Source of the DNA: a bacterium
GTDB taxonomy: Bacteria > Patescibacteriota > Minisyncoccia > Phycocordibacterales > UBA2100
Direction of reading: 5' to 3'
Assembly: GCA_030648265.1 (NCBI GenBank)
Contig: JAUSHX010000040.1
Coordinates: 1 to 61,890, forward strand
Length of the DNA: 61,890 nucleotides
Within the stretch, counting starts at the first letter, position 1. Each line of letters begins with the position of its first letter. Below, one piece after another: positions 7,226 to 61,890 of this stretch. A program made the translations under genes and the position numbers. Below the pieces are notes generated by a model, which made no database searches, was not told where the DNA came from, and saw nothing but the letters and a program-made list of their open reading frames with translations.

Positions 7226-8077
7226 ATGGCTACGTGCATAGTTTGTAATTCTCTGGATAGCGTGCCGTTTAGCAAAAAAAATGGGCATGACATAGTACGC
7301 TGTACTGCCTGCGGCCTCTTGTTTGTATATCCCATACACGCTTCGTCGAGCGATATCTACAATCGCGATTATTTTGAAGGTGCGTCAAAGGGTTTTGGGT
7401 ATGTGAACTATGACGAGGACAAGGAGCCCATGAAGCCGGTTTTTCTAAAATATCTAAACATCATAGACGCCGAGCTCGGGGGGAAAAGGGGAAAACTGCT
7501 CGATGTGGGTGCGGCGACCGGCTATTTCGTGAGACTGGCAAGAGACGCGGGGTACGATGCGGAAGGGGTTGATATTTCAGAACATGCGGCAATGCTGGGC
7601 CGCGCAAAAGGTCTGCGGGTACACACGGGAACCATTGAAGACGCGAGCGGCATCTACGATTGCATCACGATGCTTGACCTTATTGAGCACGTGCCTGATC
7701 CGCGGGCAGTCATTAAAAAAGCCGCTTCACTGCTACGGAGAAGGGGCGTGCTTATCATCAATGCCCCGGATGCGGGAAGCCTGCTTGCGCGTATTCTCGG
7801 CCGATATTGGCACCTCATTTCACCGCCCGAACATCTCTATTATTTCAATCGCAGTAATATGCGGCGGCTTCTTGATGAGGAAGGTTTTGACGTTGCCCGC
7901 ATGACCACGATAGGAAAATGGTTCACTATCAAATATATTTTCAAAGTTCTTGGTCGGAGTACGCACATTGGTCTCTTCCAAAAAATCAGTTCTTTTTTTT
8001 CAAACAAATCTCTCACACGACTTTCTTTGCCCGTAAATCTCCGCGACAATATGTTTGTGGTCGCGCGCCGCCGCTAG
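7226..8077 (+). CDS. Class I SAM-dependent methyltransferase with N-terminal Cys4 zinc ribbon
   Basis: 283-aa ORF with CIVCNS...CTACGL, LLDVGAATGYFVRLA and LLRRRGVLIINAP. Same architecture as the 2105..3019 gene. Confidence 0.75.
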   Translation: MATCIVCNSLDSVPFSKKNGHDIVRCTACGLLFVYPIHASSSDIYNRDYFEGASKGFGYVNYDEDKEPMKPVFLKYLNIIDAELGGKRGKLLDVGAATGYFVRLARDAGYDAEGVDISEHAAMLGRAKGLRVHTGTIEDASGIYDCITMLDLIEHVPDPRAVIKKAASLLRRRGVLIINAPDAGSLLARILGRYWHLISPPEHLYYFNRSNMRRLLDEEGFDVARMTTIGKWFTIKYIFKVLGRSTHIGLFQKISSFFSNKSLTRLSLPVNLRDNMFVVARRR

Positions 8078-8089
8078 TATACTCTGCAA

Positions 8090-9868
8090 ATGCTGGAGGA
8101 TGCGCCCCCTACCGTATTGAGAAGTCGATGGTTGTTCTTCTGCCTCGGCTGTCTTTTTATATTTTCGACCTTCCCGATATTAAATGTGCTTTTTGCAAGC
8201 GGATCGTATGACGACGCGGCATCTTTGTCGTACCTCGACACCTATTACTCGCCGATGGTGCGGGAAGTTGTGAATGGACATCCTCTCATGGGGAATCCCT
8301 ATTTCATCGAGCATCGCGAGAAAATAGCGCCGGCATTTTTCCTTCCGTTCTGGCTCTCGGCGGTTCCGCAGATTCTCGGGCTTTCTCAGGCACTCTCGGC
8401 TCTTTTCAACTTTACTCTCTGGTCTCTTATCTTTGGCTGTATCCTCTACGTGATTTTTGCCCGACTCGGATTGTCGCCTCCATGGAGCACGGTTGGTACG
8501 CTCTTATGCTATCTGCAGGTGTATCCCTATCTCCTGCGACCGGTTTCCATGCAAGTCGTGCACCCATTTTTTCTGTTGTTTATTTTTGCGTTCATACTGT
8601 GGTGGCAAAGGCAGAATTGGCGCACGGTTGTATTCTTGGTCACAGCAACTGCGCTCGCTTTTTATGATTACACGTATCTCTGGCAGGTCATCGCTGTATT
8701 TCTGGGGCTTTCGTTCTTCAGTTTGCTCATTATGCGCGACTCTTCGCGCGCACGCGCGGCGCTTTTGGTCGGTCTTGGTACTGCGTTGCTCATCATCCCG
8801 ATGGTGTATCTCACCTTAGTCCAGATGCACGACCCGAATTATTGGGAAACAATGATGCGCATCGGGCTTGGCAGTACGCATCTGCCTGCTGCAGAAGCAG
8901 TATGGGGCGGCATGCGTATGCTTGTGTTCGCAATTCTTGCGTTCTCTATATGGAAATGGATCGCTCAAAAAGAAGCGCAGACAGAGCGTATGTTTTTTGT
9001 GCTTCAGTATATGCTCTTGGGTGTTGCTATTGAGATTGCCTCAGTTAGCAACGTGATTACCGGCATGGAGCTCGAAACCGCCTCGCATATGGCGCGATTC
9101 GTCTCTCTGTGGCTTGCCATTGGATTTGTAGTCGCGCTGTATGCAACGTGGCGCGCACGCGCCACGCTGCGTTCACTACATCCATATAAGAGCATAATTC
9201 TTTGCGTACTCTTTGTTCTCGTCGGCGTGTCGCTCAATGCGTATAACAGAAGTCCGTTGTCTGTATTGAAATTTGACGACGTGCGTTCGCGCATCGCGGA
9301 GAAACAATCCTATATGCCCGCATTTAACTGGCTTAACGAAAATGAATCAGAGCCGCGGGTGATTTGGACAGACCCAAACTCTCTGCTCGCGCAATATGTT
9401 CCTCTCTATACGAAACACTATGTGCTGTTCACCGCTGGAGGACTTCTGCAGCTGGTCTCGTCGCGGGAGATTCAAGAAAGGTATCTCGCGGCAGGGGCAC
9501 TTTCAAATCTGACGCCCGAGCATATCAGTAAAGACATTGCACATTACAACGGCGCAGGGCCGGCGTACGATATTCCCAATATGATGAATAGGAAAGTAAA
9601 ATATTGCAGAGCACTTCGTCTGCACGCGCTCGGATTTTCATGCGGGAATTTGACCGATGCGCAGACACTCAATTCAGCTCTCTACGCACGGATGTACCAG
9701 CGTTACAACGAAGACATTAAGCCGCATCTCCAGGATGAACTTACGAAATTTCATGTTACATACATTATGAAAGATGCCATGAATGACGTTGCGTTTCATC
9801 CGGAACTTCTCAAGAATATCAAGCTCGTATATTCAGATGGGCGTTTCCTCATTTACAAAGTACTCTAG
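8090..9868 (+). CDS. Large polytopic membrane protein (possible GT-C-like glycosyltransferase or polymerase), paralog 1
   Basis: 592-aa ORF with at least 10 hydrophobic segments followed by a roughly 190-aa soluble C-terminal domain. It shares the N-terminal loop motif GHPLMGNPYFIEH with the next gene. Confidence 0.7.
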   Translation: MLEDAPPTVLRSRWLFFCLGCLFIFSTFPILNVLFASGSYDDAASLSYLDTYYSPMVREVVNGHPLMGNPYFIEHREKIAPAFFLPFWLSAVPQILGLSQALSALFNFTLWSLIFGCILYVIFARLGLSPPWSTVGTLLCYLQVYPYLLRPVSMQVVHPFFLLFIFAFILWWQRQNWRTVVFLVTATALAFYDYTYLWQVIAVFLGLSFFSLLIMRDSSRARAALLVGLGTALLIIPMVYLTLVQMHDPNYWETMMRIGLGSTHLPAAEAVWGGMRMLVFAILAFSIWKWIAQKEAQTERMFFVLQYMLLGVAIEIASVSNVITGMELETASHMARFVSLWLAIGFVVALYATWRARATLRSLHPYKSIILCVLFVLVGVSLNAYNRSPLSVLKFDDVRSRIAEKQSYMPAFNWLNENESEPRVIWTDPNSLLAQYVPLYTKHYVLFTAGGLLQLVSSREIQERYLAAGALSNLTPEHISKDIAHYNGAGPAYDIPNMMNRKVKYCRALRLHALGFSCGNLTDAQTLNSALYARMYQRYNEDIKPHLQDELTKFHVTYIMKDAMNDVAFHPELLKNIKLVYSDGRFLIYKVL

Positions 9869-26462: not shown

Positions 26463-27359
26463 CTAGATGAGATTAAGACTTTCTAAGCACGCTTTTATCG
26501 CTGGTCGGTTTTTTTCTTCTATCGGCACTAATGGCAATCGAAAGGATTCCTCAATAAGTCCCATCATGTAGAGGGCAGTTTTGACGGGAATCGGATTGGA
26601 CTCAATAAAATTGATATCCATGAGCGGCAATAACCGCAGATGTATTTCCTTCGCTTTCTCCCAATCTCCGGCGAGCGCTCGCGCACAGAGTTCGGAAAAC
26701 TCCTTCGGAACTTCATTCGCGACGACGCTGATGCACCCACGCGCTCCCAGTTCCATTGCAGGAAGGGTAAGGGCATCATCTCCTGACAGGACAGTAAATC
26801 CTTCGGGGGCGCCTTTTATAATGTCTCTGATTTGGCTGATATTGCCAGATGCCTCTTTCACAGCAATCACGCCCGGAACTTCTTTTGCGATTCTTAGTAT
26901 CGTCTCCGGAAGTACGTTTGAACCCGTGCGCCCCGGAACATTGTAGAGAATGACCGGCAAGTCGACGGATTCGGTAATCGCTTTGAAATGGGCAACCAAT
27001 CCGTTAGGAGTCGGTTTATTGTAGTAGGGCGTGACGTGCAAAAGGCTGTCCACGCCCTGTGCCCGTGCGATTTTTGAAAGCTCAATAGCGCGTACCGTAT
27101 TGTTTGAACCGGCGCCGGCAATGACGGGAATTTTCCCGCCAACTTCTTCCACGGCGCATTTCACTGTCTCGGCGTATTCCTTGTCATTCAGTGTTACTGC
27201 CTCTCCGGTTGAACCGCAGGCCACGATGCCGTTTACGCCTCCAGCCAGCTGGCGTTTGAGCAGCGCCCGGAAAGCGGGGAAGTCCACCTCTCCGCTTTTT
27301 GTGAACGGCGTGACAATAGCGGTAATAGCCCCCTGTAGAACAATCTTGGTCATACCCAT
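26463..27359 (-). CDS. dapA: 4-hydroxy-tetrahydrodipicolinate synthase
   Basis: 298-aa ORF with GAITAIVTPF, GIVACGSTGEAVTL, VTPYYNKPT, LYNVPGRTG and AVKEASG (active-site lysine). Confidence 0.9.
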   Translation of the reverse strand: MGMTKIVLQGAITAIVTPFTKSGEVDFPAFRALLKRQLAGGVNGIVACGSTGEAVTLNDKEYAETVKCAVEEVGGKIPVIAGAGSNNTVRAIELSKIARAQGVDSLLHVTPYYNKPTPNGLVAHFKAITESVDLPVILYNVPGRTGSNVLPETILRIAKEVPGVIAVKEASGNISQIRDIIKGAPEGFTVLSGDDALTLPAMELGARGCISVVANEVPKEFSELCARALAGDWEKAKEIHLRLLPLMDINFIESNPIPVKTALYMMGLIEESFRLPLVPIEEKNRPAIKACLESLNLI

Positions 27360-27488
27360 ACACTAAGTTTGCCGTAATTTTGCGCCGGAGTAATTTTAAC
27401 GCGGTTAAGCGTTTTTATGATTGTCGAGAAGTTATCGATAGTAATTTGTTCCATAAGAGGCGACGACAAACTTAGTGTCGGGGTCATA

Positions 27489-32719: not shown

Positions 32720-34402
32720 ATGAATATTGCCGATAATTTAAAACAGGTGCTTGCGCGATCTCTGGGGGAGGCGGGAATCAAAGTTTCCGCGGAATATGTG
32801 GCGCTCGCGCGGCCGAAAGAACTTTCACACGGAGATTACGCGACCGGCGCGGCACTGCAGTACTCCAAGCAGGTTGGCATGCCCCCCGCAAAGCTCGCGG
32901 AAAAAATTGTCGCCGGATTGGGGACATTAAACGGGGTTAAGCGTGTTGAAGTCGTCGCTCCTGGTTTTATAAATTTCCATCTGACGCCGGATACTATCAA
33001 CAATGTTCTAGGGGAGGCGATTGCAAATGAGGAAGCGTGGGGAAGAAATGACTTGCAGAAAGATTCGCGCGTGATGGTGGAGTACACAGACCCCAATCCT
33101 TTCAAGGAATTTCACATTGGCCACTTGATGAGCAATGCAATCGGCGAATCCATTTCTCGCCTCGTAGAATATTCCGGCGCTGAAGTGAAGCGTGCTAACT
33201 ATCAGGGCGACGTGGGGCCGCATGTGGCAAAAGCCATTTGGAGCATTCAAAAACACGGCGGTGACGCGCATGATGCGAATGTTCTTGGAAAAGCGTATGT
33301 GGATGGTTCCAATGCATATGAAAGCGATGCCGAAGCGAAAGCGCAAATTGATGCATTGAACGGAAAAATCTATGACCGCTCTGACCCGCAGGTAAATGCG
33401 ATTTACGATGCGGGGTGCGATGCGTCTCTCAAGCATTTTGAAGAAATCTACAAAACACTTGGTACAAAGTTTGACTATTCTTTTTTTGAAAGTGAAACGG
33501 CGCCATTCGGTAAGAAAATCGTTGAAGAACATCCTGAAATATTTGAGAAAAGCGACGGCGCGATTGTCTACAAAGGGGACGAGAAAAAAGGATTGCATAC
33601 GCGCGTATTTATAAATTCCAAAGGTCTTCCGACCTACGAGGCAAAAGAGCTTGGTCTGGCAAAGAAGAAACACGACACATATCCGTACGACAAATCCATC
33701 GTCATCACCGGAAATGAAGTCAACGAGTATTTCAGAGTGTTGCTGGATGCAATGTCAAAAGTTTATCCTGACCTTGCCACAAAAACCGTTCACATTTCGC
33801 ACGGCATGATGCGCTTGTCTTCCGGCAAGATGTCGTCGCGTACAGGCGATGTAATAACGGGCGAGTCGCTTATCGCAGAATTGAAAGAACGTGCCACCGC
33901 ACGAGCTTCAGAGAGTCGGGCCGATGACGCAGAAAGACTTGCCGAGCAAATTGCGGTTTCTGCGGTGAAGTATCAGATATTAAGACAGGCATCGGGCAAG
34001 GATATTATTTTTGACCGCGAGCGCGCGCTTTCGCTTGAAGGTGATTCGGGGCCGTATCTGCAATACGCGCATGCGCGGGCGTATGCCGTTGTTGAAAGGG
34101 CGAAATCTCAAGGTGTCACCTTGGGGATTCAAAAAGGTGACACCTTGGAACCCAACGACGTTTCCCGCCTCGTCACGCGTTTTCCGGAGGTCGTCTTGTA
34201 TGCGGCGGAAAAGCTTGAGCCGCACTTGCTAGCGAATTATTTGATTTCGCTTGCCGGCGCATTCAACAGTTGGTACGCGCAGGTGCACATTTTGGATGGA
34301 ACGAAAGAAGCCCCGCACAAAGTCGCAATAGTGAACGCGGTTCGTGCGACACTGAAGAATGGCCTGTGGCTTCTGGGTATATCAGCACCCGAGAAAATGT
34401 GA
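32720..34402 (+). CDS. argS: Arginine--tRNA ligase
   Basis: ORF 32516..34402 trimmed to the ATG at 32720 (MNIADNLKQVL). Contains TDPNPFKEFHIGHL (HIGH) and the MSSR variant of KMSK, plus a C-terminal DALR anticodon-binding region. Confidence 0.9.
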   Translation: MNIADNLKQVLARSLGEAGIKVSAEYVALARPKELSHGDYATGAALQYSKQVGMPPAKLAEKIVAGLGTLNGVKRVEVVAPGFINFHLTPDTINNVLGEAIANEEAWGRNDLQKDSRVMVEYTDPNPFKEFHIGHLMSNAIGESISRLVEYSGAEVKRANYQGDVGPHVAKAIWSIQKHGGDAHDANVLGKAYVDGSNAYESDAEAKAQIDALNGKIYDRSDPQVNAIYDAGCDASLKHFEEIYKTLGTKFDYSFFESETAPFGKKIVEEHPEIFEKSDGAIVYKGDEKKGLHTRVFINSKGLPTYEAKELGLAKKKHDTYPYDKSIVITGNEVNEYFRVLLDAMSKVYPDLATKTVHISHGMMRLSSGKMSSRTGDVITGESLIAELKERATARASESRADDAERLAEQIAVSAVKYQILRQASGKDIIFDRERALSLEGDSGPYLQYAHARAYAVVERAKSQGVTLGIQKGDTLEPNDVSRLVTRFPEVVLYAAEKLEPHLLANYLISLAGAFNSWYAQVHILDGTKEAPHKVAIVNAVRATLKNGLWLLGISAPEKM

Positions 34403-50302: not shown

Positions 50303-50740
50303 TTACTGCGCCACGGTGGATGTGGAGATGGGTAGCGAAGAAGCTGTTGATGTGCTCGTCACCCGGGGGCCGTCTACAGGTGCCGACACTGACTCCGTCG
50401 GCTCATACATCACTTCAATGACACTCTCACGCGTTCTGCCGTATCTGTCTTGCGCGCGGAGCACTATGCGGTTGTAGCCGTCATTGAGAAGATACGGTTC
50501 GCTGAACGCGCCGCCTTCGGTTACGGTCACAGGCCTGCCGTTCATGGTTAGTTGCGCAATGCGAGCCGCCGTTCCGTGAACGGTTATGAATCGGTCGTGC
50601 ACTACGGCGGCCTTATCAGGCACATCAATACTTGGTCCGAATAAAAGACCCCGTGCTTCGTAGTATGCGTAAAGAACCACCAGCACGAAAAACAGTGCGA
50701 GTAGTATTTTTGTTATTCTGCCGTCTCGATAGGGGAGCAT
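50303..50740 (-). CDS. Hypothetical membrane-anchored protein (one N-terminal TM, beta-rich ectodomain)
   Basis: 145-aa ORF with a TM helix (ILLALFFVLVVLYAYY), then ITVHGTA...LTMNGRPV...GYNRIVLRAQD, which looks Ig-like. Confidence 0.5.
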   Translation of the reverse strand: MLPYRDGRITKILLALFFVLVVLYAYYEARGLLFGPSIDVPDKAAVVHDRFITVHGTAARIAQLTMNGRPVTVTEGGAFSEPYLLNDGYNRIVLRAQDRYGRTRESVIEVMYEPTESVSAPVDGPRVTSTSTASSLPISTSTVAQ

Positions 50741-50874
50741 ACCCGCACACTAAGTGTGCCGTAGTTGTTGCCGTGGCAAATCCAGCGACCACTGGAGTTT
50801 TTTGATGGAAGGGAACACTCCTGCAATAAAATGATTTGTATTCATAGAGGCAACGGCATACTTAGTGTGCGGGC
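50741..50874 (-). repeat. Long spacer-filling hairpin between ftsK and the downstream gene
   Basis: Arm 50742-50762 (CCCGCACACTAAGTGTGCCGT) matches the reverse complement of 50853-50873 at 20 of 21 positions. The loop is about 90 nt. On the mRNA strand, the base of the stem ends 1 nt before the ATG at 50740. Confidence 0.7.
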
Positions 50875-50894
50875 ATAGGCCAGAAGTAAAGCAT

Positions 50895-53159
50895 TCACAC
50901 TCGTTCGATATTACCATTTTCATCTGCTTCGGCTTCTTCGCTTGCTTCAGCAACAAGTTCATCTGCATTGCCGGCTCCTATAATTTCCCGCGGCTTCGCG
51001 CCGTCGCCCGCACCTATCACACCCCGCTCCTCAAGCATATCCACGAGCCGTGCCGCGCGCGAATATCCGACACGAAGCTTTCTTTGGAGATATGATGTGG
51101 ACGCTTTACCGGCTTCTATAACCGCTTGCTTTGCCTCCGGATATAAATCGTCCTCGCTCCCGCCGCCGGCTTCGTCCACAGAAGAAAACACGATATCAGT
51201 GTCGTTTCTCGTTTCGGTAAAATCGATCTCGCTCGGAAGCTGTCCCTCGCCGAATTTTGCGACGTATGCGACAACCTTCTTTACCTCTGCCTCCGAAATG
51301 AACGGCGCTTGTATACGGCGCGGTTTTGACATTTCTCCGGAAAGGAAAAGCATGTCGCCGGCACCGAGAAGTTTCTCCGCGCCCCCCATATCAAGAATTG
51401 TGCGTGAGTCAACCTGTGAAGCAACCTGAAGCGCAACGCGGGCGGGGATGTTCGCCTTTATAAGTCCCGTTATGACTTTTACCGACGGACGCTGCGTTGA
51501 AAGAATGAGATGGATTCCTACTGCTCGGCTCATTTGCGCAAGGCGGACGATTCCGCTCTCCAGTTCTCGCGGGTATGAGGACATCATATCCGCAAGCTCA
51601 TCAATTATGACAACGATGTACGGCATTGCTTCCGGCAGGGCTTCACTTTTCTCTCCGGAAGAGGATGACCTAAGAGCGCTTGCAACAACATTTGCGTGGT
51701 ACGAAGAAATATCCCTTACGGCCTCTGCCTCAAGGATGTTGTATCGCCGCTCCATTTCTTTCGAGAGCCACTTGATGGCGAGAATGGCTTTTTTCGCATC
51801 GGTAATGACCGGGGTGAGAAGGTGTGGAATGGAATTGTACGTCGTAAGCTCAACACGTTTCGGATCAATCATTATAAATCGCAAAAGTTCCGGCCCGCAC
51901 CGATACAGAAGCGAGACGACAAAGTTGTGAATGGTGACGGACTTACCCGCTCCCGTGGCCCCGGCTACCAATATGTGAGGCATACGTCCCAGGTCGGCAA
52001 AGTGCGGAGTGCCTGTAATGGACCTTCCAAGAGCAACCAAAAGGGGCTTGTCCGATTGCCCAAAAGCAGTATCAGACAAAAGAGGGGCGAGCCCTAATGT
52101 TGTCCGTGATATGTTCGGGACCTCAATGCCGACCAATGATTTACCCGGAATAGGAGCTTCAATGCGGAGTGGAGAAGCGGCAAGAGCAAGCTCCAGATTG
52201 CTCTGTAGAGCCACGATTTTAGAAAGCCGGACACCCTCGGCAGGTTTCATTGCGTAGCGCGTGACAGTCGGACCAATTGAGGCCTCGTCCATTTCAACGT
52301 GTATGCCGAAGTTCTGAAGTGTTCGCTTAATGATGTTCATATTTGCTTTCACGTCACCAACCTCCGGTTTCCCTTTGTTCTTACTGAGAATAGAAATCGG
52401 AGGCGGAACATACGTGCTTCCCGTTGCGGCAATTATCGGGAATCCGTCCATCATGGAATCGTTTTTCTGCCAGATCTTGCTGATGCCCGATGTCCTCGGC
52501 TTTTCTTTTGTTTCTTCAAGCGCTTCGGCGGCCGGATTGCCCGGTTCCCCAATGCCTCCCGGTTCTGAATCTTCTTGGGGCAATCCAATGACCGAGATTT
52601 CATCCGCACTTACAGTGTCTTCTTTCGTTTTGCGCATCGCAGACAATCGCTCACGGATTGACTGTATGACCACGCCAAGATGAATATCAAATGCAACGAC
52701 GAGCGAAGCGACAATAAATGCAATGAGAAAAAGGGCAGTGGCGGATGTGTCCACTGCCGCGACAATGGGCTGGGAAACCCAGCCGCCGAGTTTGCCCCCG
52801 TTCCCTTGAAATGCAAGGTTTATCAGTCCCAAACCGGAAAGCAAAAAAACAAACATACTTACCATTTGTACGACGCCGAAGTGTCTCTCAAAAGATTGAA
52901 AGATGAGTATCGCAAGAAGAAGCAAAGAAAGCGGCAGGAACAGGTACCCGACGCCGAGAAGCGTTGAAAGATTGCCATAGAGCACATCACCGACTATGCC
53001 GCCTATTCTAAAACGGGCGAGAATGAGGAATATTGAGATGGCAATAAAAAAAATGGCGGACACTCCGCGAAGCGCTTCCGAACTCACGCTTCGTGCGCGC
53101 GCAGGATCCCTATCTTCCTCGGTTTCTTTGCTTTTTTCATTACGATTCTTACGTTTCAT
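50895..53159 (-). CDS. ftsK: DNA translocase FtsK
   Basis: 754-aa ORF with N-terminal TM helices, HILVAGATGAGKS (Walker A), IVVIIDELADM and a C-terminal gamma wHTH (LQRKLRVGYSRAARLVDMLE). Confidence 0.9.
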   Translation of the reverse strand: MKRKNRNEKSKETEEDRDPARARSVSSEALRGVSAIFFIAISIFLILARFRIGGIVGDVLYGNLSTLLGVGYLFLPLSLLLLAILIFQSFERHFGVVQMVSMFVFLLSGLGLINLAFQGNGGKLGGWVSQPIVAAVDTSATALFLIAFIVASLVVAFDIHLGVVIQSIRERLSAMRKTKEDTVSADEISVIGLPQEDSEPGGIGEPGNPAAEALEETKEKPRTSGISKIWQKNDSMMDGFPIIAATGSTYVPPPISILSKNKGKPEVGDVKANMNIIKRTLQNFGIHVEMDEASIGPTVTRYAMKPAEGVRLSKIVALQSNLELALAASPLRIEAPIPGKSLVGIEVPNISRTTLGLAPLLSDTAFGQSDKPLLVALGRSITGTPHFADLGRMPHILVAGATGAGKSVTIHNFVVSLLYRCGPELLRFIMIDPKRVELTTYNSIPHLLTPVITDAKKAILAIKWLSKEMERRYNILEAEAVRDISSYHANVVASALRSSSSGEKSEALPEAMPYIVVIIDELADMMSSYPRELESGIVRLAQMSRAVGIHLILSTQRPSVKVITGLIKANIPARVALQVASQVDSRTILDMGGAEKLLGAGDMLFLSGEMSKPRRIQAPFISEAEVKKVVAYVAKFGEGQLPSEIDFTETRNDTDIVFSSVDEAGGGSEDDLYPEAKQAVIEAGKASTSYLQRKLRVGYSRAARLVDMLEERGVIGAGDGAKPREIIGAGNADELVAEASEEAEADENGNIERV

Positions 53160-53191
53160 GCAGCCATCATACCATGCCAGCTGAACGCTGG

Positions 53192-53285
53192 CCGCAGAAT
53201 ACGCAGAACGAACGCAGAATTACGCAGAAGGAAATGCAATCGCATTCTTTCCGCGTTGTCTGCGTCAAGTCTGCGAAAGTCGGCG
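53192..53285. repeat. Palindromic CGCAGAA-repeat element, intergenic copy
   Basis: Four CGCAGAA-type units on the left arm and four TCTGCG-type units on the right arm surround a central AATGC..GCATT hairpin. By eye, roughly four fifths of positions are identical to 61618-61716 inside the 16S gene. Confidence 0.8.
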
Positions 53286-53389
53286 GGGCATGAAGTGACC
53301 ATTGCATTCATCCATGTCCTATATATAATCATGTATGATTAGTAAGTTAATCTATAACAGACTGATTAAGGACGCGGACTAAACGTATT

Positions 53390-54199
53390 ATGGACGAAAT
53401 AAGAGACACCAGAAGATCCGACTTGCTTTCAAAGTTTCTTGATGGCCATATCGTGCGGACGAGCCCTTTCGGGCGCAATGCCTCCGGCGAGAAATCATAC
53501 CGTCGCGCCGAACGCCTTGTTGCCGCGTTGCACTTGCTTACATCCCATGTTCGGGAAGATGAACCAGTAAGGCGATCTATCCGCGTGACTGCAATCAAAC
53601 TGCTTTCCGATATATTGGCACTGCGGGATGAAATGCGCATTTCAAACTCAAGCAAGATACGCTCCGCACAGTCCACCATCAGGGAGCTCATATCGCTTGT
53701 TAGGATGTTGGGTGTTTCAGGGCTCGTTTCCATTCAAAATGCGGATATCATCGTAGAAGCCATTGACGAGCTTGGGAACTTTCTCCATCTGTCTCAAAGG
53801 ACACAGCTTTCTGAAAGTGTCGTATTTTCACGAGATGACCTGTTGAGCGGGGGACTTCCTGCAGAGAAAAGAACAAACTTGTCGGTAAAGGACAAGGCAC
53901 TCCTTCTGGGCATCAATACGGACAGGGAGGCATCACGTATAACGGACAGCTTACACGTAAAGGACGGTGTAAAGGACACGACCGTACAGATGTCAAGGAC
54001 AGACGATATGATAAGCACCCGTAGCCGGGAAGTACTGGCCATCTTGCATTCTGGTGGAGAAGTTGGAATTCGCGACATATCTTCAAATTTGCCCGAATAC
54101 AGCGAGAAAATGGTTCAACGCGAGCTCGCATCCCTCGTCGCGGCAGGACGCGTGAAAAAGAGCGGTCTTAAGCGCTGGAGCAGGTATTCCATAATCTAG
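53390..54199 (+). CDS. Hypothetical protein with a C-terminal winged-helix DNA-binding domain
   Basis: 269-aa ORF with an N-terminal helical region (KSYRRAERLVAALHLLTSHV). The C-terminal SREVLAILHSGGEVGIRDISSNLPEYSEKMVQRELASLVAAGRVKKSG is wHTH-like. Confidence 0.5.
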   Translation: MDEIRDTRRSDLLSKFLDGHIVRTSPFGRNASGEKSYRRAERLVAALHLLTSHVREDEPVRRSIRVTAIKLLSDILALRDEMRISNSSKIRSAQSTIRELISLVRMLGVSGLVSIQNADIIVEAIDELGNFLHLSQRTQLSESVVFSRDDLLSGGLPAEKRTNLSVKDKALLLGINTDREASRITDSLHVKDGVKDTTVQMSRTDDMISTRSREVLAILHSGGEVGIRDISSNLPEYSEKMVQRELASLVAAGRVKKSGLKRWSRYSII

Positions 54200-54230: not shown

Positions 54231-54282
54231 GTACCCAAGGTGAGACCTTAAAGAGTCACTCTCAAGGTCTCACCTTGGGTAC
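54231..54282 (+). terminator. 19-bp perfect hairpin after the 53390 gene
   Basis: GTACCCAAGGTGAGACCTT, a 14-nt loop, then AAGGTCTCACCTTGGGTAC. No T-run follows, so it may act as a stabiliser or processing site rather than a classical terminator. Confidence 0.45.
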
Positions 54283-55039
54283 ACATGGGGTACTGGGACG
54301 GGAGAACGAATAGATTATATGACATTAAAATCATCATCTGTCATCTGCGATTCTGTTGACTCTGGTGGTTAGATACCATAGTATGGCCATATAACTTGTG
54401 TGCCAAGGAAGAGCCCGACACGAGCTTTTCTGTTGTCATGAGTTATCCCCACAATGGGGTATGGTTGAATGATGCACTGTTCCGGTCCTGATATATAATT
54501 GCGTTGATGCAACTGCAACTTGGGATGCATCACGTAGAAGGAGTGCCACGGTGCGCGCTCTGCGTAGTTCGTTGATAATTTAATAAGGAAAGAAAACTGA
54601 TAATGAACGGGCAGGAATTTTGCTCGCACAAAATCAGATGCCTTCCTCGGACGTGTACGCGCGCAGTCGCATGGACACTAAGAGGAACATATGGTGCGCG
54701 TTAGTTAGTTTGAAAAATCTACGCGTGCGCAAACAAAACAACCGAGTGACAGTACATCGTCCGGATACGATTGCATGACAGACAACCCGAATTACTTCTT
54801 GGTGCTAACTCCACTGTTCGCTCGCGCATGAAAATGCAAGATGTGGCAGGGGCTAGCAAAATTATCGGCGAGCATGACGCACGAAAGAAAAACACAAGAT
54901 TTTTTCTTAAGTTTTTCTTTAAGCGCGAATTGTACGTTGATACAGATTATTAGTTTGTCTTCGGTTATTAGTTATTAGTTAGCATTATAAGGAGACACAC
55001 AACGTGTACGGATTCTTGTCGAAGGAGTTTGTATGCGGT

Positions 55040-55070
55040 CCCTTACCACTTTTCCTAAAAGTGATAAGGG
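55040..55070 (+). promoter_or_regulatory. Hairpin abutting the start codon of the surface-protein gene
   Basis: CCCTTACCACTTTT-CCT-AAAAGTGATAAGGG directly followed by the ATG at 55071, with one C-A mismatch. The left arm is identical to the stem of the 16S expansion at 61246-61259. Confidence 0.6.
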
Positions 55071-58735: not shown

Positions 58736-58847
58736 CATTTCTTGAGGGGAGAAAATTTGGTGAGTCCGGCATCTCCGAGGTGACTCCTTGGCATTTGCCT
58801 GCCTGCGCTGAAGCTTCGGCGGGCAGGCAAGGTGTCTCCTCGGGCAT

Positions 58848-59723
58848 TTGCATATGCTTTTGCATTTGGTTAATAAGCGCGGTACTATGCTCACCACGAT
58901 GGCTCCGAGCTCAAAAAGCCAGACAATCGGCATACTCATCGCACTCGCCGTATTAATCGGCGGTGGATATCTCTTTATGCGCGGTACGGCGCCATCCTCA
59001 AGCATGCCCGCGCCTCTTTCTACCGCATCAACTACAAATTCGGATATCGCCGGAGGGACACTGGGTATTACCGGAACGGGGGGATACACAGTCAAAGAAG
59101 TGCCCACAGGAAACAATGCTCCGAAGGCGCCAGACTACAACACGCCGCTCGTGTTTTCTGCCACCTCCAATCTTAATATAGAACAGCAATCTGCTTTACA
59201 AGGGCAGGTGACCGCCTTACGCGTACAGTTAGCCAAAAATCCTTCAAGCTACGTCGCGTGGCTTGCTCTCGGAAGAGCATTTAAGACTGCGGGAGATTAT
59301 GCGCAGGCCGCAGAAATATGGGCATACCTCTCTCTTAATTGGCCGACCGATGCTATTGCTTTCGCGAATCTTGGCGATTTGTATATGAATTTCATCAAGG
59401 ATTATCCGAAAGCGGAAGCGAGCTATCTGGGTGCGATACGGAATAATCCGCTCCAAGTGGACGCATACAGAAACCTCTTCTCGTTGTATACGAATCTGTA
59501 CACAACGCACGCTTCTGCAGCCGAAGACATTCTGAAAAAAGGCATAGCAAACAATTCCGATGCCGTTGATTTGTATGTCTTGCTTGCGCGCTACTATCGC
59601 GACTCGGGTCGTACAGCAGAGGCGCGGGCAGAGTACGATTCTGCAATCGTGCAAGCAAAGAAACAGCCCAGTTCGGCGGCACTTGTAGCCGATATAACTT
59701 CTGAGCAGGCCGCTCTCAAGTAA
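58848..59723 (+). CDS. Membrane-anchored TPR-repeat protein
   Basis: 291-aa ORF; the start could instead be the ATG at 58887. It has a TM helix (IGILIALAVLIGGGYLF) followed by TPR-like repeats (AWLALGRAFKTAGDYAQAAEIW..., ANLGDLYMNFIKDYPKAEASY...). Confidence 0.65.
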   Translation: MHMLLHLVNKRGTMLTTMAPSSKSQTIGILIALAVLIGGGYLFMRGTAPSSSMPAPLSTASTTNSDIAGGTLGITGTGGYTVKEVPTGNNAPKAPDYNTPLVFSATSNLNIEQQSALQGQVTALRVQLAKNPSSYVAWLALGRAFKTAGDYAQAAEIWAYLSLNWPTDAIAFANLGDLYMNFIKDYPKAEASYLGAIRNNPLQVDAYRNLFSLYTNLYTTHASAAEDILKKGIANNSDAVDLYVLLARYYRDSGRTAEARAEYDSAIVQAKKQPSSAALVADITSEQAALK

Positions 59724-59787
59724 GATTGTGATTCAGCAGGGTGGCGGGAGCACCCCTTATCACTTTGTTTTGATAAACAAAGCTCCA

Positions 59788-59810
59788 ACTCCAAGGACTC
59801 CCCTTGGAGT
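59788..59810. repeat. REP-like hairpin, left flank of the Y1 transposase gene
   Basis: ACTCCAAGG-ACTCC-CCTTGGAGT, a 9-bp stem with a 5-nt loop, 24 nt upstream of the ATG. Confidence 0.8.
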
Positions 59811-59833
59811 CAAAGAAGTGATAATATTTAGCA

Positions 59834-60502
59834 ATGGAGAGGAAATTCCAGTTTGAGGTAGGCGAGTGTTACCACATTTTCAATCGCGGAGTGGAAAAGC
59901 GGATTATATTCCATGACGACAAGGATTGGACAAGGTTTCAGAATCTACTTTATCTAGCGAACGGAGACAAACCGCTCGTCTTTAAACTCCTCCAAGGACT
60001 CCCCTTGGAGCAGGAGAGAGGGGGTATGTATGCCAGTATTATTGCTTACGTACTTATGCCGAATCATTTTCACATTATCGGACGGGAAGATAAAAACAGC
60101 GGACTAAGCAGATTGATGGGCAAATTATCAACCGCGTATTCCATGTACTTCAATGTGAAGTACGCTCGGAGCGGGCCTTTGTTGTGTCGCCCTTTTCGCG
60201 CACTGCATATAGACACAGACGACTATTTTCGGTGGGTACTTTCATATGTTCACCTAAACCCGCTAGACTTGATGCACCCCGGATGGAAGGAAGAAGGGAA
60301 AATAGATTTTGATCAGGCCGTTAAATTCCTTCAATCGTTTGCATACTCAAGTTACCCAGACTATTTTCTTGCAAAACGGCTGGCAACGAAGATCATCAAC
60401 AAAGATGGCTTGCCAGTGGAAATATCCGACCTTGAAAATGTTGAAAAAATGCTTGAAGAATTTCAGACGCCGCCGGAAAATTCGTCGCTCGCTTGGGATT
60501 AA
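59834..60502 (+). mobile_element. IS200/RAYT-type Y1 (HUH) transposase gene
   Basis: 222-aa ORF with CYHIFNRGVEKRIIF, IIAYVLMPNHFHIIG (the HUH motif) and YFRWVLSYVHLNPL (catalytic Tyr region). It is flanked by inverted copies of the same hairpin. Confidence 0.75.
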
Positions 60503-60537
60503 TCCAAGGGGAGTCCTTGGACACCTCCTTGGAGTTG
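60503..60537. repeat. REP-like hairpin (inverted orientation) plus half-repeat, right flank of the transposase gene
   Basis: TCCAAGGGGAGTCCTTGGA (60503-60521) is the reverse complement of the left hairpin. CCTTGGAGTTG (60527-60537) is the reverse complement of 59786-59796. Confidence 0.8.
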
Positions 60538-60547
60538 AGTGTCCCTA

Positions 60548-60575
60548 TTGACTTAAAAACATCCGTAAGTATACT
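60548..60575 (+). promoter_or_regulatory. Sigma70-like promoter, candidate rRNA operon promoter
   Basis: TTGACT (60548-60553), a 16-nt spacer, then TATACT (60570-60575). It lies about 510 nt upstream of the 16S 5' end, and the AT-rich leader between them has no credible ORF. Confidence 0.4.
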
Positions 60576-61081
60576 TTCCTTCACCATCGCTCCTGCGCTG
60601 GACTTCGTAGCTCCGTTAAGGAGCGAAGTAGTCATGGGCGTGGGTCCTGCTTTGCATAAAGCTTCGCAGGATAAACGGTGTACCGAAAAACTGCTATGAA
60701 ATACTTCGGAAGGACTTTGAAAACTAAATAGACAATTGTACGCAAAACCAAAAATAAGATTGGTAAGTAAGTAAAACACACCCCGAAAAAGACGTAAATC
60801 GCTTCGCGATTAAGTCTCTCGGGGCGAGCACACAAGCAAGTAATTGAGTAAATAGAAAATACATTTGGAATTCTAGGAGGATTTCAAGTGTTAAGTAATA
60901 AACAGTTAGAAACAAAAGAAATATCCATTCTTTTGTTTCGTCCATCCAAAAAAAGAAATTAGAACTTAGTTCAAACATCTTTTCACTGTGAATAGCGGAG
61001 ACTACTAGTGAGGGCAATGCCTTCATGACGGTCTTTTGCGAAAACACGGGGGTGAACATCACGTAACAGTGGTGATTCACT

Positions 61082-61890
61082 TATACTTAGAGTTTGATCC
61101 TAGCTCAGGGTGAACGCTGGCGGCATGGATAAGGCATGCAAGTCACGGGGGCCGCAAGGCAACCGGCAGACGAGGTAGTAACACGTAGGAACGTACCCCA
61201 GAGTCTGGTATAGCTCGCCGAAAGGCGGGGTAATCCCAGATAGTCCCCTTACCACTTTTGCACTTCAGAAAAATAAAATGTACTCGTGTCATGCTCGCAT
61301 GGCATGGATATTGTTATAAAAATTGGAGATCAAAAGTGGTAAGGGGTAAAGGAGCAATTCGCTCCGGGAGCGGCCTGCGTTGTATCAGCTAGTTGGTAGG
61401 GTAATGGCCTACCAAGGCTATGACGCATAGGGGCGCTGAGAGGCGGACCCCCACCGATGGAATTGAGATACGGTCCATACTCCTACGGGAGGCTGCAGTC
61501 GAGAATCTTCGGCAATGGGCGAAAGCCTGACCGAGCGATGCCGCGTGGTGGATGAAGCGCTTCGGCGCGTAAACACCTTTTATGAGGGAGAAAGCTGTGC
61601 CTCACTATTGTTCGGCACCGCAGAACATCGCAGAACGAACGCAGAAGGTCGCAGAAGTAAATGCATCCCGCATTTTTTCTGCGTAATTCAGCGTCAAGTC
61701 TGCGTAAGTCTGCGCTGTGGCGAGTGATAGCGAGGCACAGATTGATGTTACCTCATGAATAAGGGGCTCCTAACTCTGTGCCAGCAGGAGCGGTAATACA
61801 GAGGCCCCAAGCGTTACCCGGAATTACTGGGCGTAAAGAGTGCGTAGGTGGTCGTGTTAGTCGTTTGTTAAATCTCCCGGCTCAACCGGG
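61082..61890 (+). rRNA. rrs: 16S ribosomal RNA, 5' portion (continues past the right edge), with two expansion segments
   Basis: AGAGTTTGATCCTAGCTCAG at 61089, ACTCCTACGGGAGGCTGCAG, GTGCCAGCAGGAGCGGTAATAC and ATTACTGGGCGTAAAG appear in the correct order. Extra helices lie at 61245-61346 and 61595-61740. Confidence 0.95.

Follow-up and report, generated by a model that had tools for sequence, protein, structure and literature searches.

A palindromic heptamer-array insert in a CPR 16S rRNA gene as a probable copy of a dispersed DNA element

Palindromic selfish DNA that survives in frame within coding genes and in variable regions of structural RNAs is known from the Rickettsia palindromic elements (RPE) and from the double-hairpin and GC-cluster elements of mitochondria. 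The Correia elements of Neisseria are non-autonomous and dispersed, carry terminal inverted repeats, are co-transcribed with host genes and form hairpins that RNase III can cleave; insertion into rRNA helices is, to our knowledge, not among their traits. Within rRNA, the intervening sequences (IVSs) of 23S helices 9, 25 and 45 in Salmonella, Leptospira and Coxiella replace the loop at a helix tip with extra sequence, form a long stem-loop through their complementary termini and are sporadic among close relatives. We know of no demonstration that a classical IVS is dispersed, as a sequence, outside rRNA. A transposon origin of IVSs has long been hypothesized and has been an open question since 1990 (PMC4990558).

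In CPR bacteria, insertions occur in about half of the 16S and about four fifths of the 23S rRNA genes, and not all of these are accounted for by introns and homing endonucleases; the most complete survey (Tsurumaki et al. 2024, PMC11270868) left the short insertions that lack an ORF as ‘uncharacterized’. These are mostly shorter than 200 bp, are neither introns nor ORF-bearing, sit at stem-loop tips and occur frequently at known IVS sites; the survey used E. coli as reference with a cut-off of ≥100 bp, and its main text does not use the words palindrome, repeat or hairpin (PMC11270868). Descriptively, the insert analyzed here is the same phenomenon. Whereas such insertions remained uncharacterized in that survey, those described below can be assigned to one dispersed family of repeats that share a defined architecture, which would give at least some short CPR insertions an identity as copies of a dispersed palindromic repeat.

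The insert lies in the V3 region of a CPR 16S rRNA gene, within a window of 61,890 nt that comprises the whole stretch of DNA analyzed. We consider it probable that this insert represents one copy of a palindromic DNA element that is dispersed and non-autonomous. Such an element would be built of two arms, each with four CGCAGAA heptamers 9–11 nt apart, joined by a short apex and flanked by terminal inverted repeats or small hairpins.

The V3 insert and its counterpart in the ftsK spacer

The 5' part of the 16S rRNA gene occupies positions 61082–61890 on the forward strand (Rfam RF00177, 512.6 bits, model positions 1–617) and is truncated at the end of the window. At the tip of helix 17, which in the model is a hairpin tip of only 7 nt (~457–464), the gene carries 138 nt beyond the model, in agreement with the first-pass annotation, which had placed a 146-nt insert at 61595–61740. 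The complete insert, on the forward strand, is a single palindromic heptamer-array element. Its outer stem, or terminal inverted repeat, is formed by CTGTGCCTCACTATTGTTCGGCAC (61595–61618) pairing with CTGTGGCGAGTGATAGCGAGGCACAG (61715–61740) through 9 bp, a 1x1 mismatch and a further 10 bp; the latter include three G.U pairs that are stable in the sense RNA only and become A.C mismatches in the antisense. The 5' arm (61619–61656) contains four exact CGCAGAA units at 61619, 61629, 61640 and 61650, separated by CAT, CGAA and GGT, and is followed by the apex hairpin AAATGCATCCCGCATTT (61659–61675; AAATGC-ATCCC-GCATTT). In the 3' arm (61677–61714), TTCTGCG at 61677, TTCAGCG at 61687 and GTCTGCG at 61698 and 61708 are separated by TAA, TCAA and TAA. 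The core had been described beforehand as four CGCAGAA units, a central hairpin and four TCTGCG units; the first two parts stand, while only three of the four TCTGCG units are exact, the remaining one reading TCAGCG.

Folding of the insert RNA yielded a single long hairpin of -78.7 kcal/mol (z = -10.3 against shuffled sequences), as had been proposed, and the 146 nt hold no meaningful ORF, as had also been observed; the spurious ORF at 61515–61727 is not on record. In an Rfam scan of the window at the gathering threshold, the 16S gene was the sole match, so that neither a group I nor a group II intron was detected. All three IVS traits recur in the insert, namely additional helix-tip sequence in place of a short loop, complementary termini that form a stem-loop, and a sporadic occurrence in relatives. 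It differs from classical IVSs in its location in 16S helix 17, in a stem made of periodic heptamer arrays, in the lack of an ORF and in belonging to a family whose sequence is also dispersed outside rRNA.

Elements of this kind break sequence assemblies at rRNA genes: the contig of every relative ends within the 16S gene, that of L124 exactly at the V3 junction. Together with the failure to find an independent contig across the junctions of the window, this is what a repeat-induced assembly chimera, in which the 16S gene is fused with a repeat located elsewhere, could produce. Such an artefact is nevertheless extremely improbable, as the 16S sequence is collinear on both sides of the insert and helix 17 is closed precisely. 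Moreover, independent assemblies from other samples carry family members in 16S and 23S genes with intact flanks, and an NCBI Kaiserbacteria assembly and two others contain a homologous insert at the identical site.

A blastn search of the insert against the window aligned 61618–61714 to 53192–53285 with 82.5% identity over 97 nt (E = 2.9e-20) and found no third copy; the match of roughly four fifths that had been estimated by eye is thus well above chance level. A covariance model (CM) trained on 16 family members scored the V3 copy at 93.1 bits and the spacer copy at 87.5 bits. The next match in the window, at 54869–54936, reached 18 bits (E = 0.03) and was taken as noise, and a CGCAGAA cluster at 33874–33964 was rejected because it is coding sequence. 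The window contains 23 CGCAGAA occurrences against 12.2 expected, a count reached by no shuffle, and 9 of the 23 fall within the two elements.

The core of the second copy (53193–53285, forward strand) consists of four CGCAGAA units, the apex AAATGCAATCGCATT and the units TTCCGCG, GTCTGCG, GTCTGCG and GTCGGCG, and folds at -55.5 kcal/mol (z = -5.5). A small hairpin, CCAGC-TGAAC-GCTGG (53177–53191, forward strand), lies directly 5' of it. The copy occupies the divergent spacer between ftsK on the reverse strand (50895–53159; Pfam FtsK_SpoIIIE, 7.9e-58, FtsK_alpha and FtsK_gamma) and a forward gene for a 269-aa protein (53390–54199) that matches no Pfam family and has a weak C-terminal winged-helix (wHTH)-like match. 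Directly downstream of the copy, TTGCAT-N16-TATAAT (53302–53329, forward strand) is a putative promoter of the 269-aa gene, judging by its fit to the consensus and its conservation in contigs L125 and L139. L125 has an intact copy in the orthologous spacer; in L139 a decayed remnant is left there, and no heptamer array was found in the 15.6 kb of that contig examined.

Across 17 copies with 68 unit pairs, unit positions 1, 2, 3 and 5 show no variation and only Watson-Crick pairing, and all 68 retain pairing at position 6, once as G.U, while the spacers between units and the apex diverge from copy to copy. The covariation test returned nothing, since paired columns never vary, and the alignment therefore gives no independent support for a constraint on structure as opposed to sequence. 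Invariant heptamers amid drifting sequence point to a trans-acting, sequence-specific factor or to homogenization between copies. The same pattern would suit double-stranded DNA operator arrays bound by a host protein such as the 269-aa protein, the rRNA copy being an accidental duplicate: a spacing of 9–11 nt would place the units on one face of the helix, and the -35-like hexamer in front of the 269-aa gene borders directly on the spacer copy, whose counterpart in L125 occupies the orthologous position. Against this stand the copies within rRNA helices and coding sequences, a full copy in an unrelated gene context (L048), the retention of the 269-aa gene (53% protein identity) beside the decayed array of L139, and the lack of any enriched gene family beside 56 arrays in other genomes. 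Taken together, we find a role as operators very improbable.

Distribution, turnover and transcription of the family in CPR contigs

Scanning metagenome contigs for the pattern gave 17 loci, or 14 after merging of duplicates. Since the pattern demanded exact CGCAGAA on one arm, part of the apparent asymmetry between 5' and 3' arms stems from the scan itself. Full-length homologues in other CPR contigs scored 67–97 bits with the CM and occupy many unrelated sites, including intergenic DNA; the CPR loci examined hold more than 20 copies. Within 16S genes, copies were found in V1 (L126, L124) and V2 (L124, L125, L132), and further ones in the 16S leader (L128, L133) and 3' flank (L123). At least seven 23S hairpin tips are occupied, at model positions ~138, ~285 and the copy at 8015–8093 of L122, ~583, ~1218, ~1762 and ~1881–1912; those at ~583 and ~1218 correspond to the helix-25 and helix-45 sites of classical IVSs.

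Three copies lie in frame within protein genes, namely uvrB (L138), leuS (L127) and infB (L060). The UvrB of L138 has 18 residues more than solved PDB UvrB structures, and the LeuS of L127 has extra residues, among them the element-encoded 240–266. In the IF2 of L060, the element encodes residues 60–85, which in our own judgement, made without a structure comparison, are extra relative to typical IF2. These undisrupted genes, all outside the window, recall the RPE, although neither the RPE nor the mitochondrial elements share a sequence relationship, the host clade or the heptamer arrays with this family.

The first-pass annotation had suggested aligning the gene with the 16S genes of relatives that lack the insert, and this alignment revealed that the filling of V1, V2 and V3 differs among 16S genes that are 88–100% identical. 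In the window, V1 is empty, V2 carries another insert and V3 is filled. L124, whose aligned 16S segments are 95–100% identical, has a filled V1 and a nested double element in V2, and Kaiserbacteria contigs L277–280 (97%) have empty V1 and V2. In L133 (88%), all three sites are empty, and the V3 site reads AAGTT-TATTGA, the hyphen marking the position of the insert.

Several inserts are related across sites. The V3 copy of the window is homologous to the outer V2 copy of L124 over its whole length, outer stem included, with 93% identity over the 5' 61 nt, and termini of the CTGTGCC..GGCACAG type are common to the window copy, L122, L131 and L124. The spacer copy, L125, the L139 remnant and the V3 insert of a Kaiserbacteria relative all have an apex of the type seen in the V3 copy. 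The Kaiserbacteria insert, located at the identical site, also shares the termini of the window copy, and its arms are unrelated and built of a 14-nt repeat. In two independent cases (V2 of L124, 23S of L122), copies are nested, the inner one exactly at the apex of the outer one.

Slipped-strand growth with compensatory slippage on the opposite arm has been proposed for eukaryotic expansion segments. By the same route, the helix-17 tip could have expanded in situ, through duplication of a ~10-nt unit without any mobility, with the likeness of the spacer copy being convergent. Both arms are indeed internally periodic, the Kaiserbacteria V3 insert and a V2 insert in L281 (CACGAAG/TTCGGAT arms) are built of different repeats, and all four units of the L124 V1 copy read CGCAGAT, a concerted change within one copy. 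However, the matches between loci (82–93%, E down to 3e-20) include the non-repeated parts, i.e., the CGAA/TCAA spacers, the AAATGC..GCATT apex and the outer stem, and further copies of the element lie in intergenic DNA or form in-frame parts of protein genes. Slippage probably operates within copies; dispersal is beyond its reach. Growth in place is therefore distinctly unlikely as an explanation of the insert, the formal alignments having already refuted most of it.

A copy of a dispersed element thus remains our preferred reading. The earlier proposal of a mobile element gains support from the distribution over many sites, the turnover of sites among relatives and the homology across sites, but the V3 site itself is old. 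Given the Kaiserbacteria insert with the same termini and apex, the window copy is not a recent private insertion; it may have been inherited and later homogenized rather than newly inserted.

With MITE-type elements the family shares terminal inverted repeats and many dispersed copies. In none of the CPR loci examined did we detect a transposase, a target-site duplication or an autonomous parent, and comparison of filled with empty V1, V2 and V3 junctions revealed no direct repeat; small copy-specific hairpins flank the insertions instead. The family differs from Correia elements in that neither a target-site duplication nor a parent insertion sequence was seen, and in its arms, which are tandem heptamer arrays rather than simple terminal inverted repeats.

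Hairpins of this sort, often GCGAAGC-type, border most family members and differ from copy to copy. In uvrB of L138 and at a gene end in L130, their sequences are suggestive of inverted duplications of the target flank; the stop codon of the L130 gene lies within the loop of the flanking hairpin. Both halves of the leuS flanking hairpin resemble native coding sequence.

Eight of the 14 non-redundant CPR loci lie in rRNA operons, the 16S leader and 3' flank included, and wherever a CPR copy shows a clear strand preference, it runs in the sense direction of its host gene. These observations, the sense-specific G.U pairs of the V3 outer stem and the retention of rnc in CPR (PMC12641178) would fit a host-selected module for rRNA processing or ribosome biogenesis, a portable dsRNA cassette that draws RNase III or another factor, with all other copies as by-products. 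We regard this as unlikely. Even very close relatives carry the element only sporadically, and 16S genes such as that of L133 lack it altogether; the uvrB, leuS and infB copies and the intergenic arrays outside CPR are unconnected to rRNA. Nor is the sense RNA consistently more stable, as by folding energy the antisense folds better in 13 of 19 copies.

More probably, the family spreads, or once spread, at the DNA level within CPR genomes, and copies would persist where a self-folding hairpin costs the host little, i.e., at peripheral rRNA helix tips, in rRNA leaders and spacers, in intergenic DNA and, in frame, in surface loops of proteins. Transcribed within the 16S rRNA, the element would simply lengthen helix 17. 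Its ~20-bp outer stem is the likeliest RNase III substrate, and excision of the insert in the manner of a classical IVS is probable, considering the length of the stem, the rnc gene kept in CPR and the cutting of classical IVSs within such stems (PMC4990558). Alternatively, the insert could be kept as an expansion segment. In amplicon surveys, such elements inflate or distort V1–V3 products.

Because copies of the element can be compared within and beyond rRNA genes, between occupied and vacant sites and in nested arrangements, the hypothesis of a transposon origin of IVSs becomes testable on sequence alone.

Candidate partner genes and arrays in other phyla

REPs and REPINs, which are mobilized by RAYT transposases (Y1 HUH), offer another comparison. 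Like them, the arrays are short, non-coding, dispersed palindromes in several copies per genome, mostly extragenic and often just past the 3' ends of genes, and a RAYT-like gene (59834–60502) lies 580 nt upstream of the 16S gene of the window. A REP, in contrast, is a GTAG-headed hairpin of 20–40 nt, whereas this element consists of ~95–146 nt of heptamer arrays, with a core of 93–96 nt, eight heptamer units and no GTAG head. Of the MITE/REP-like reading given by the first-pass annotation, the dispersed palindromic element is upheld by copies at many sites, while the likeness to REPs is one of analogy only.

The RAYT-like gene is flanked by a REP of its own, CTCCAAGG-ACTC-CCTTGGAG, unrelated to the CGCAGAA arrays, and is bracketed by CTCCAAGGACTCCCCTTGGAG at 59789 (forward) and 60503 (inverted). 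Its homologues in L139–L145 carry CCAAGG-GTAG-type REPs and lack CGCAGAA arrays, none of which lies within ~20 kb of three of these homologues. The gene was therefore rejected as the mobilizer. It is itself an insertion, because the syntenic contig L125 has only ~340 nt at this position. In the search for independent contigs, a single Logan contig of 1.9 kb matched the window, at 58798–60743, and the same organism is present in SRR13727527.

Many phyla have palindromic heptamer arrays of the same architecture, scattered among unrelated intergenic settings at several copies per genome. The alternative raised in the first-pass annotation, that rRNA-derived sequence was copied elsewhere, is unsupported for this reason, since many of these phyla are not CPR. 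No conserved neighbor emerged, as the 64 proteins encoded next to such arrays matched 71 different Pfam families with at most two members each. A phage origin was rejected, as few of 119 viral matches were palindromic arrays and most were 12-nt coding repeats, and a plasmid BLAST gave no relevant match. Literature searches with the CGCAGAA and TTCTGCG motifs retrieved primer sequences only, and those for GxxExxY or PDDEXK_3 nothing relevant apart from a Coxiella IVS paper.

The only candidate seen for a trans-acting factor is the GxxExxY PD-(D/E)XK nuclease (TIGR04256 / Pfam PDDEXK_3), which from its gene neighborhoods could be a partner, or the autonomous form, of the arrays. In Bacteroidota and Acidobacteriota, genes for this nuclease lie between inverted arrays of heptamers like those described here, CGCAGAA included; neither the window nor any of the CPR loci examined contained such a gene. 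The architecture shared across phyla and its association with GxxExxY genes may indicate an unrecognized class of mobile elements. We tentatively raise the possibility, with more doubt than confidence, that palindromes with arms of three or four heptamers (CGCAGAA, related CRCRGAA, ACACGAA and ACAGAA, spaced 9–11 nt) form a widespread, undescribed class whose autonomous members carry a central GxxExxY gene. Their ORF-less derivatives would then be the source of CPR rRNA IVSs and expansions and, by extension, a general origin of ORF-less IVSs and in-frame peptide insertions. In two Bacteroidota loci (L209, L265), the GxxExxY gene lies between inverted CGCAGAA arrays, and across the loci the sequence of the arrays varies with the variant of the protein.

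The V3 insert and its copy in the ftsK spacer

The bacterial 16S rRNA gene on the forward strand (61082-61890; Rfam, 512.6 bits, model positions 1-617, cut by the window end) carries two large insertions relative to the Rfam model: one at the V2 hairpin tip (61245-61346, 81 extra nt) and one at the tip of helix 17 (V3; 61595-61740, 138 extra nt). The V3 insert comprises an outer stem (61595-61618 paired with 61715-61740), four exact CGCAGAA units on the 5' arm (at 61619, 61629, 61640 and 61650), an apex hairpin (AAATGC-ATCCC-GCATTT) and four inverted units on the 3' arm (TTCTGCG, TTCAGCG, GTCTGCG and GTCTGCG). Its RNA is predicted to fold into a single long hairpin (-78.7 kcal/mol, z = -10.3), in which 6-bp helices are interspersed with 3x3 and 4x4 internal loops above a closing stem of ~20 bp that includes three G.U pairs.

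The first-pass annotation had matched this insert to a repeat in the spacer upstream of ftsK. The similarity is genuine and far above chance: blastn within the window aligned 61618-61714 to 53192-53285 at 82.5% identity over 97 nt (E 2.9e-20), with no third match to the insert elsewhere in the window, and a covariance model scored the two copies at 93.1 bits (V3) and 87.5 bits (spacer), the next match in the window reaching only 18 bits. The spacer copy lies between the divergent ftsK (50895-53159, - strand) and a 269-aa gene (53390-54199, + strand), and a conserved TTGCAT-N16-TATAAT stands directly downstream of its end. It is intact at the orthologous site of the syntenic contig L125. In contig L139 it has decayed, though traces are still recognisable (GGCGGAC..CTCGGAA..CTGGAGAA and CACACGCATTT); there, the adjoining gene is an ortholog of the 269-aa gene (53% identical) and no array was found within the 15.6 kb examined. 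In L139 (1-2812), ftsK was called as two genes, one with a weak Intein_splicing match, and may be intein-containing or split.

Units were tabulated for 17 CPR copies with four units each, giving 68 unit pairs. Heptamer positions 1, 2, 3 and 5 were Watson-Crick paired and invariant in all 68, and position 6 was paired throughout, with one G.U. Position 4 was A on the 5' arm in 60 of the 68, facing T (30), C (20), A (5) or G (5), while position 7, an A, mostly faced G. Between the middle spacers, 5' CGAA versus 3' TCAA or TTAA, there is no complementarity, and the resulting 4x4 loop is conserved; the remaining spacers and the apex diverge freely. No covariation between paired positions was found across the 68 unit pairs, because these positions never vary; constraint acts on the sequence CGC-N-GA in both arms. 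Most copies have small copy-specific flanking hairpins, often with a GCGAAGC-type core; others have mutually complementary flanks that form an outer stem. All CPR copies with a clear strand preference share one orientation relative to host-gene transcription, and this bias is real, since the search left the strand of the exact-pattern match unconstrained. It could reflect either RNA-level selection or a DNA mechanism that is strand-specific and linked to the direction of replication; across copies, folding energy gave the sense strand no advantage.

Placement and turnover in CPR contigs

An exact-pattern scan of metagenome contigs yielded 17 loci, or 14 once duplicates were merged, eight of them placed within rRNA operons by Rfam and blastn. 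The 16S copies occupy V1 (L126, and L124 as a CGCAGAT-unit variant), V2 (L125, L132 and a nested double element in L124), the leader (L128, L133) and the 3' flank (L123). Those in 23S genes sit at hairpin tips, at model positions ~138 and ~285 in L122 (with a further copy at 8015-8093), ~285 and ~583 in the Wolfebacteria contig L086, ~1218 in L137, and ~1762 and ~1881-1912 in L131; of these sites, ~583 and ~1218 correspond to helix 25 and helix 45, where rRNA intervening sequences (IVSs) are classically located. Full or half elements also lie at gene ends (L129, L130, L136), and a Saccharibacteria contig (L048) holds a full copy in a gene context unlike that of the window. Further copies are in frame within coding sequences. 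The uvrB copy (L138 2948-3001) accounts for 18 extra residues right before the DESH motif in comparison with solved UvrB structures; the leuS copy (L127 1799-1878) lies among extra residues that include the element-encoded 240-266, with a second array at 1386-1422 (residues 392-404); and the infB copy (L060 6243-6319) encodes residues 60-85, which fall in the G domain with the switch-I-like GGITQ motif on one side and DTPGH on the other. The encoded peptides are hydrophilic and rich in Q, T, A, E, N and R. This spread over many rRNA, intergenic and coding sites supports, and considerably extends, the earlier preferred reading that a small, mobile, non-autonomous palindromic (MITE/REP-like) element has colonised an rRNA helix.

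Alignment of 16S genes showed that site occupancy varies between close relatives. In the window, V1 is empty, V2 holds a 97-nt insert from another family and V3 is filled. In L124, 95-100% identical over aligned segments, V1 is filled and the V2 double element measures 248 nt, and contigs L277-L280, like Kaiserbacteria GW2011_GWA2_49_19 (97% identity), have empty V1 and V2 and a different insert at the same V3 site. At 88% identity, L281 (first ~160 nt) has a 215-nt V2 insert with CACGAAG/TTCGGAT repeat arms, L126 has a filled V1 and an empty V2, and in L133 all three sites are empty. The window V3 copy is homologous along its entire length to the outer V2 element of L124 (93% across the 61 nt at the 5' end, which take in the outer stem and all three spacers), so one and the same subfamily is found in different helices from one close relative to the next. 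Nesting occurs twice (L124 V2 and L122 23S), and each time the inner copy has small flanking hairpins of its own and is placed precisely at the outer copy's apex. Since a dispensable outer hairpin should tolerate insertion anywhere, these two cases hint at apex-targeted insertion, beyond selection alone.

All relatives' contigs reaching this 16S end inside the gene (L124, exactly at the V3 junction; L125; L132; L276-L281), and L125 ends inside the spacer element; repeats of this kind break assemblies.

The V3 insertion site is old. In the Kaiserbacteria relative (L277 6703-6842; Candidatus Kaiserbacteria, GCA_001003845.1), exactly this position holds a 140-nt insert with the same termini (CTGT...GCAG) and apex (CAAATGCAT..GCATT) as that of the window. 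Its arms are built of 14-nt repeats, CGARTTAGGAGR and TTCTTATCTCTTAT, pairing largely via G.U, and its fold reaches -64.6 kcal/mol in sense versus -53.2 kcal/mol in antisense. Together with the L281 arms, these repeats suggest rapid repeat turnover within old rRNA-tip inserts. We infer that heptamers would stay perfect wherever the family remains active or its copies homogenise each other; once it is extinct, RNA pairing would be the sole constraint on the drifting rRNA copy, and the copy in the spacer would decay.

Relation to known systems and to other repeats of the window

The most complete survey of CPR rRNA insertions classified introns and homing-endonuclease ORFs and left short ORF-less insertions 'uncharacterized', its sole suggestion being that some may be RNase III-type IVSs; palindromes, repeats and hairpins are absent from its main text (PMC11270868). 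The origin of IVSs is still treated as unclear, with an old transposon-remnant hypothesis cited, and in the Coxiella IVS RNase III cuts within a stem (PMC4990558). As the 20-bp outer stem of the window copy is of this kind and CPR retain rnc (PMC12641178), RNase III excision of the V3 insert is plausible by analogy. In function and behaviour, the element resembles IVSs, REPs or MITEs, and Rickettsia palindromic elements alike. Structurally it agrees with IVSs, and it falls outside the REP/RAYT class; it may be a MITE, with neither a target-site duplication nor a parent element seen in the CPR loci examined. No description of the architecture was found in the literature searched, and the breadth of the element's insertion sites is unusually informative.

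A RAYT-like Y1/HUH transposase gene (222 aa, 59834-60502; NCBIfam REP_Tyr_transpos, 1.5e-8; HUH and YVHLNP motifs) lies 580 nt upstream of the 16S. Its own REP, CTCCAAGGACTCCCCTTGGAG, flanks it in the classical inverted layout, upstream (59789-59809) and inverted directly past the stop codon (60503-60521), with a third copy within the ORF (59990-60010). More than 1,100 homologues were found, mostly from Patescibacteria/Paceibacterota where source names are given; they carry CCAAGG-GTAG-type REPs, and three homologue loci examined held no CGCAGAA arrays. With its own REP, such homologues and these array-free loci, the gene was ruled out as the element's mobiliser. It is itself a recent insertion, since L125 has space for just ~340 nt there.

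Other repeats were observed in the window. The V2 insert (61245-61346) has a perfect 16-bp closing stem (CCCCTTACCACTTTTG / CAAAAGTGGTAAGGGG) and also uses a dispersed palindrome, CCCTTACCACTTT, with five occurrences versus 0.7 expected; at 55040-55070 this forms a short hairpin ending at the ATG of a 1185-aa gene, and at 59754-59766 a stem enclosing the REP upstream of the RAYT-like gene. A third inverted-repeat family of ~135 nt, with 22-24-nt termini (ACCCRYACACTAAGTKTGCCGT / ACGRCAWACTTAGTGTSSGGG), has two apparently intergenic copies, at 27354-27484 and at 50739-50876, the latter between a 145-aa gene and the ftsK 3' end. A perfect 19-bp inverted repeat of CCAAGG type (GTACCCAAGGTGAGACCTT / AAGGTCTCACCTTGGGTAC; 54231-54282) follows shortly after the 269-aa gene and resembles a RAYT-family REP that has diverged.

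Arrays in other phyla and associated nuclease genes

A scan for three spaced CGCAGAA units, with one genome per species, returned at least 120 loci (L001-L120). Palindromic arrays were present in 48 of the 120 matches listed, 56 arrays in total, with three or four units per arm, a 9-11 nt period and frequently a 2-4-2 spacer pattern. Hosts among the matches listed were Acidobacteriota, Gemmatimonadota, Bacteroidota, Burkholderiales, Verrucomicrobiota, Planctomycetota, Actinomycetota and CPR, with several palindromic arrays per genome, as in Ramlibacter (Burkholderiales), Comamonadaceae examples in L018, L035, L046, L068, L095, L110 and L113, and five copies in 8 kb in a Planctomycetaceae locus (L052). 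The listed arrays are intergenic, often 5-40 nt beyond a gene's 3' end; the 38 with called genes on both sides divide into 12 convergent, 20 tandem and 6 divergent, and no enriched neighbour gene family was found beside the listed arrays. Listed loci (L072, L115, L007, L027) also hold palindromes built to this plan from different heptamers (CGCGAAG, CACGAAT, GTGACAG), so that, judged by sequence, the architecture is generic and the heptamer family-specific.

In Bacteroidota, small GxxExxY PD-(D/E)XK nuclease genes (PF13366 / TIGR04256) lie between inverted heptamer arrays, and the heptamer differs by protein variant: CGCAGAA for P0129 (L209), ACAGAA / CACGGAA for P0173, ACAGATT for P0236 and ACACGAA for P0174. 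An Acidobacteriota GxxExxY gene has CGCRRAG arrays ahead of it. Genes bracketed by inverted arrays were found at L209 2296-2881, L265 1017-1602, L267-L275, L283-L292, L079 1-900 and L078 7500-8000, on contigs mostly just 0.5-1.5 kb long; the left array often lies inside a tandem repeat of 51-56 nt, present in differing copy numbers from sample to sample. This arrangement makes the GxxExxY nuclease the one candidate autonomous form seen, and neither the window nor any of the CPR loci examined yielded a gene of this type.

A Gemmatimonadaceae locus (L004 2-983) has a palindromic CGCAGAA array with an IS110-family transposase gene ~100 nt away; palindromic repeats are frequent targets of IS110-family elements. 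A 3.3-kb segment of L115 (247-3578), bounded by inverted CGCAGAA arrays, encodes a PDDEXK_2 (Rpn/YhgA-like 'transposase') protein and a 592-aa protein of unassigned family, and may represent a larger array-bounded element.
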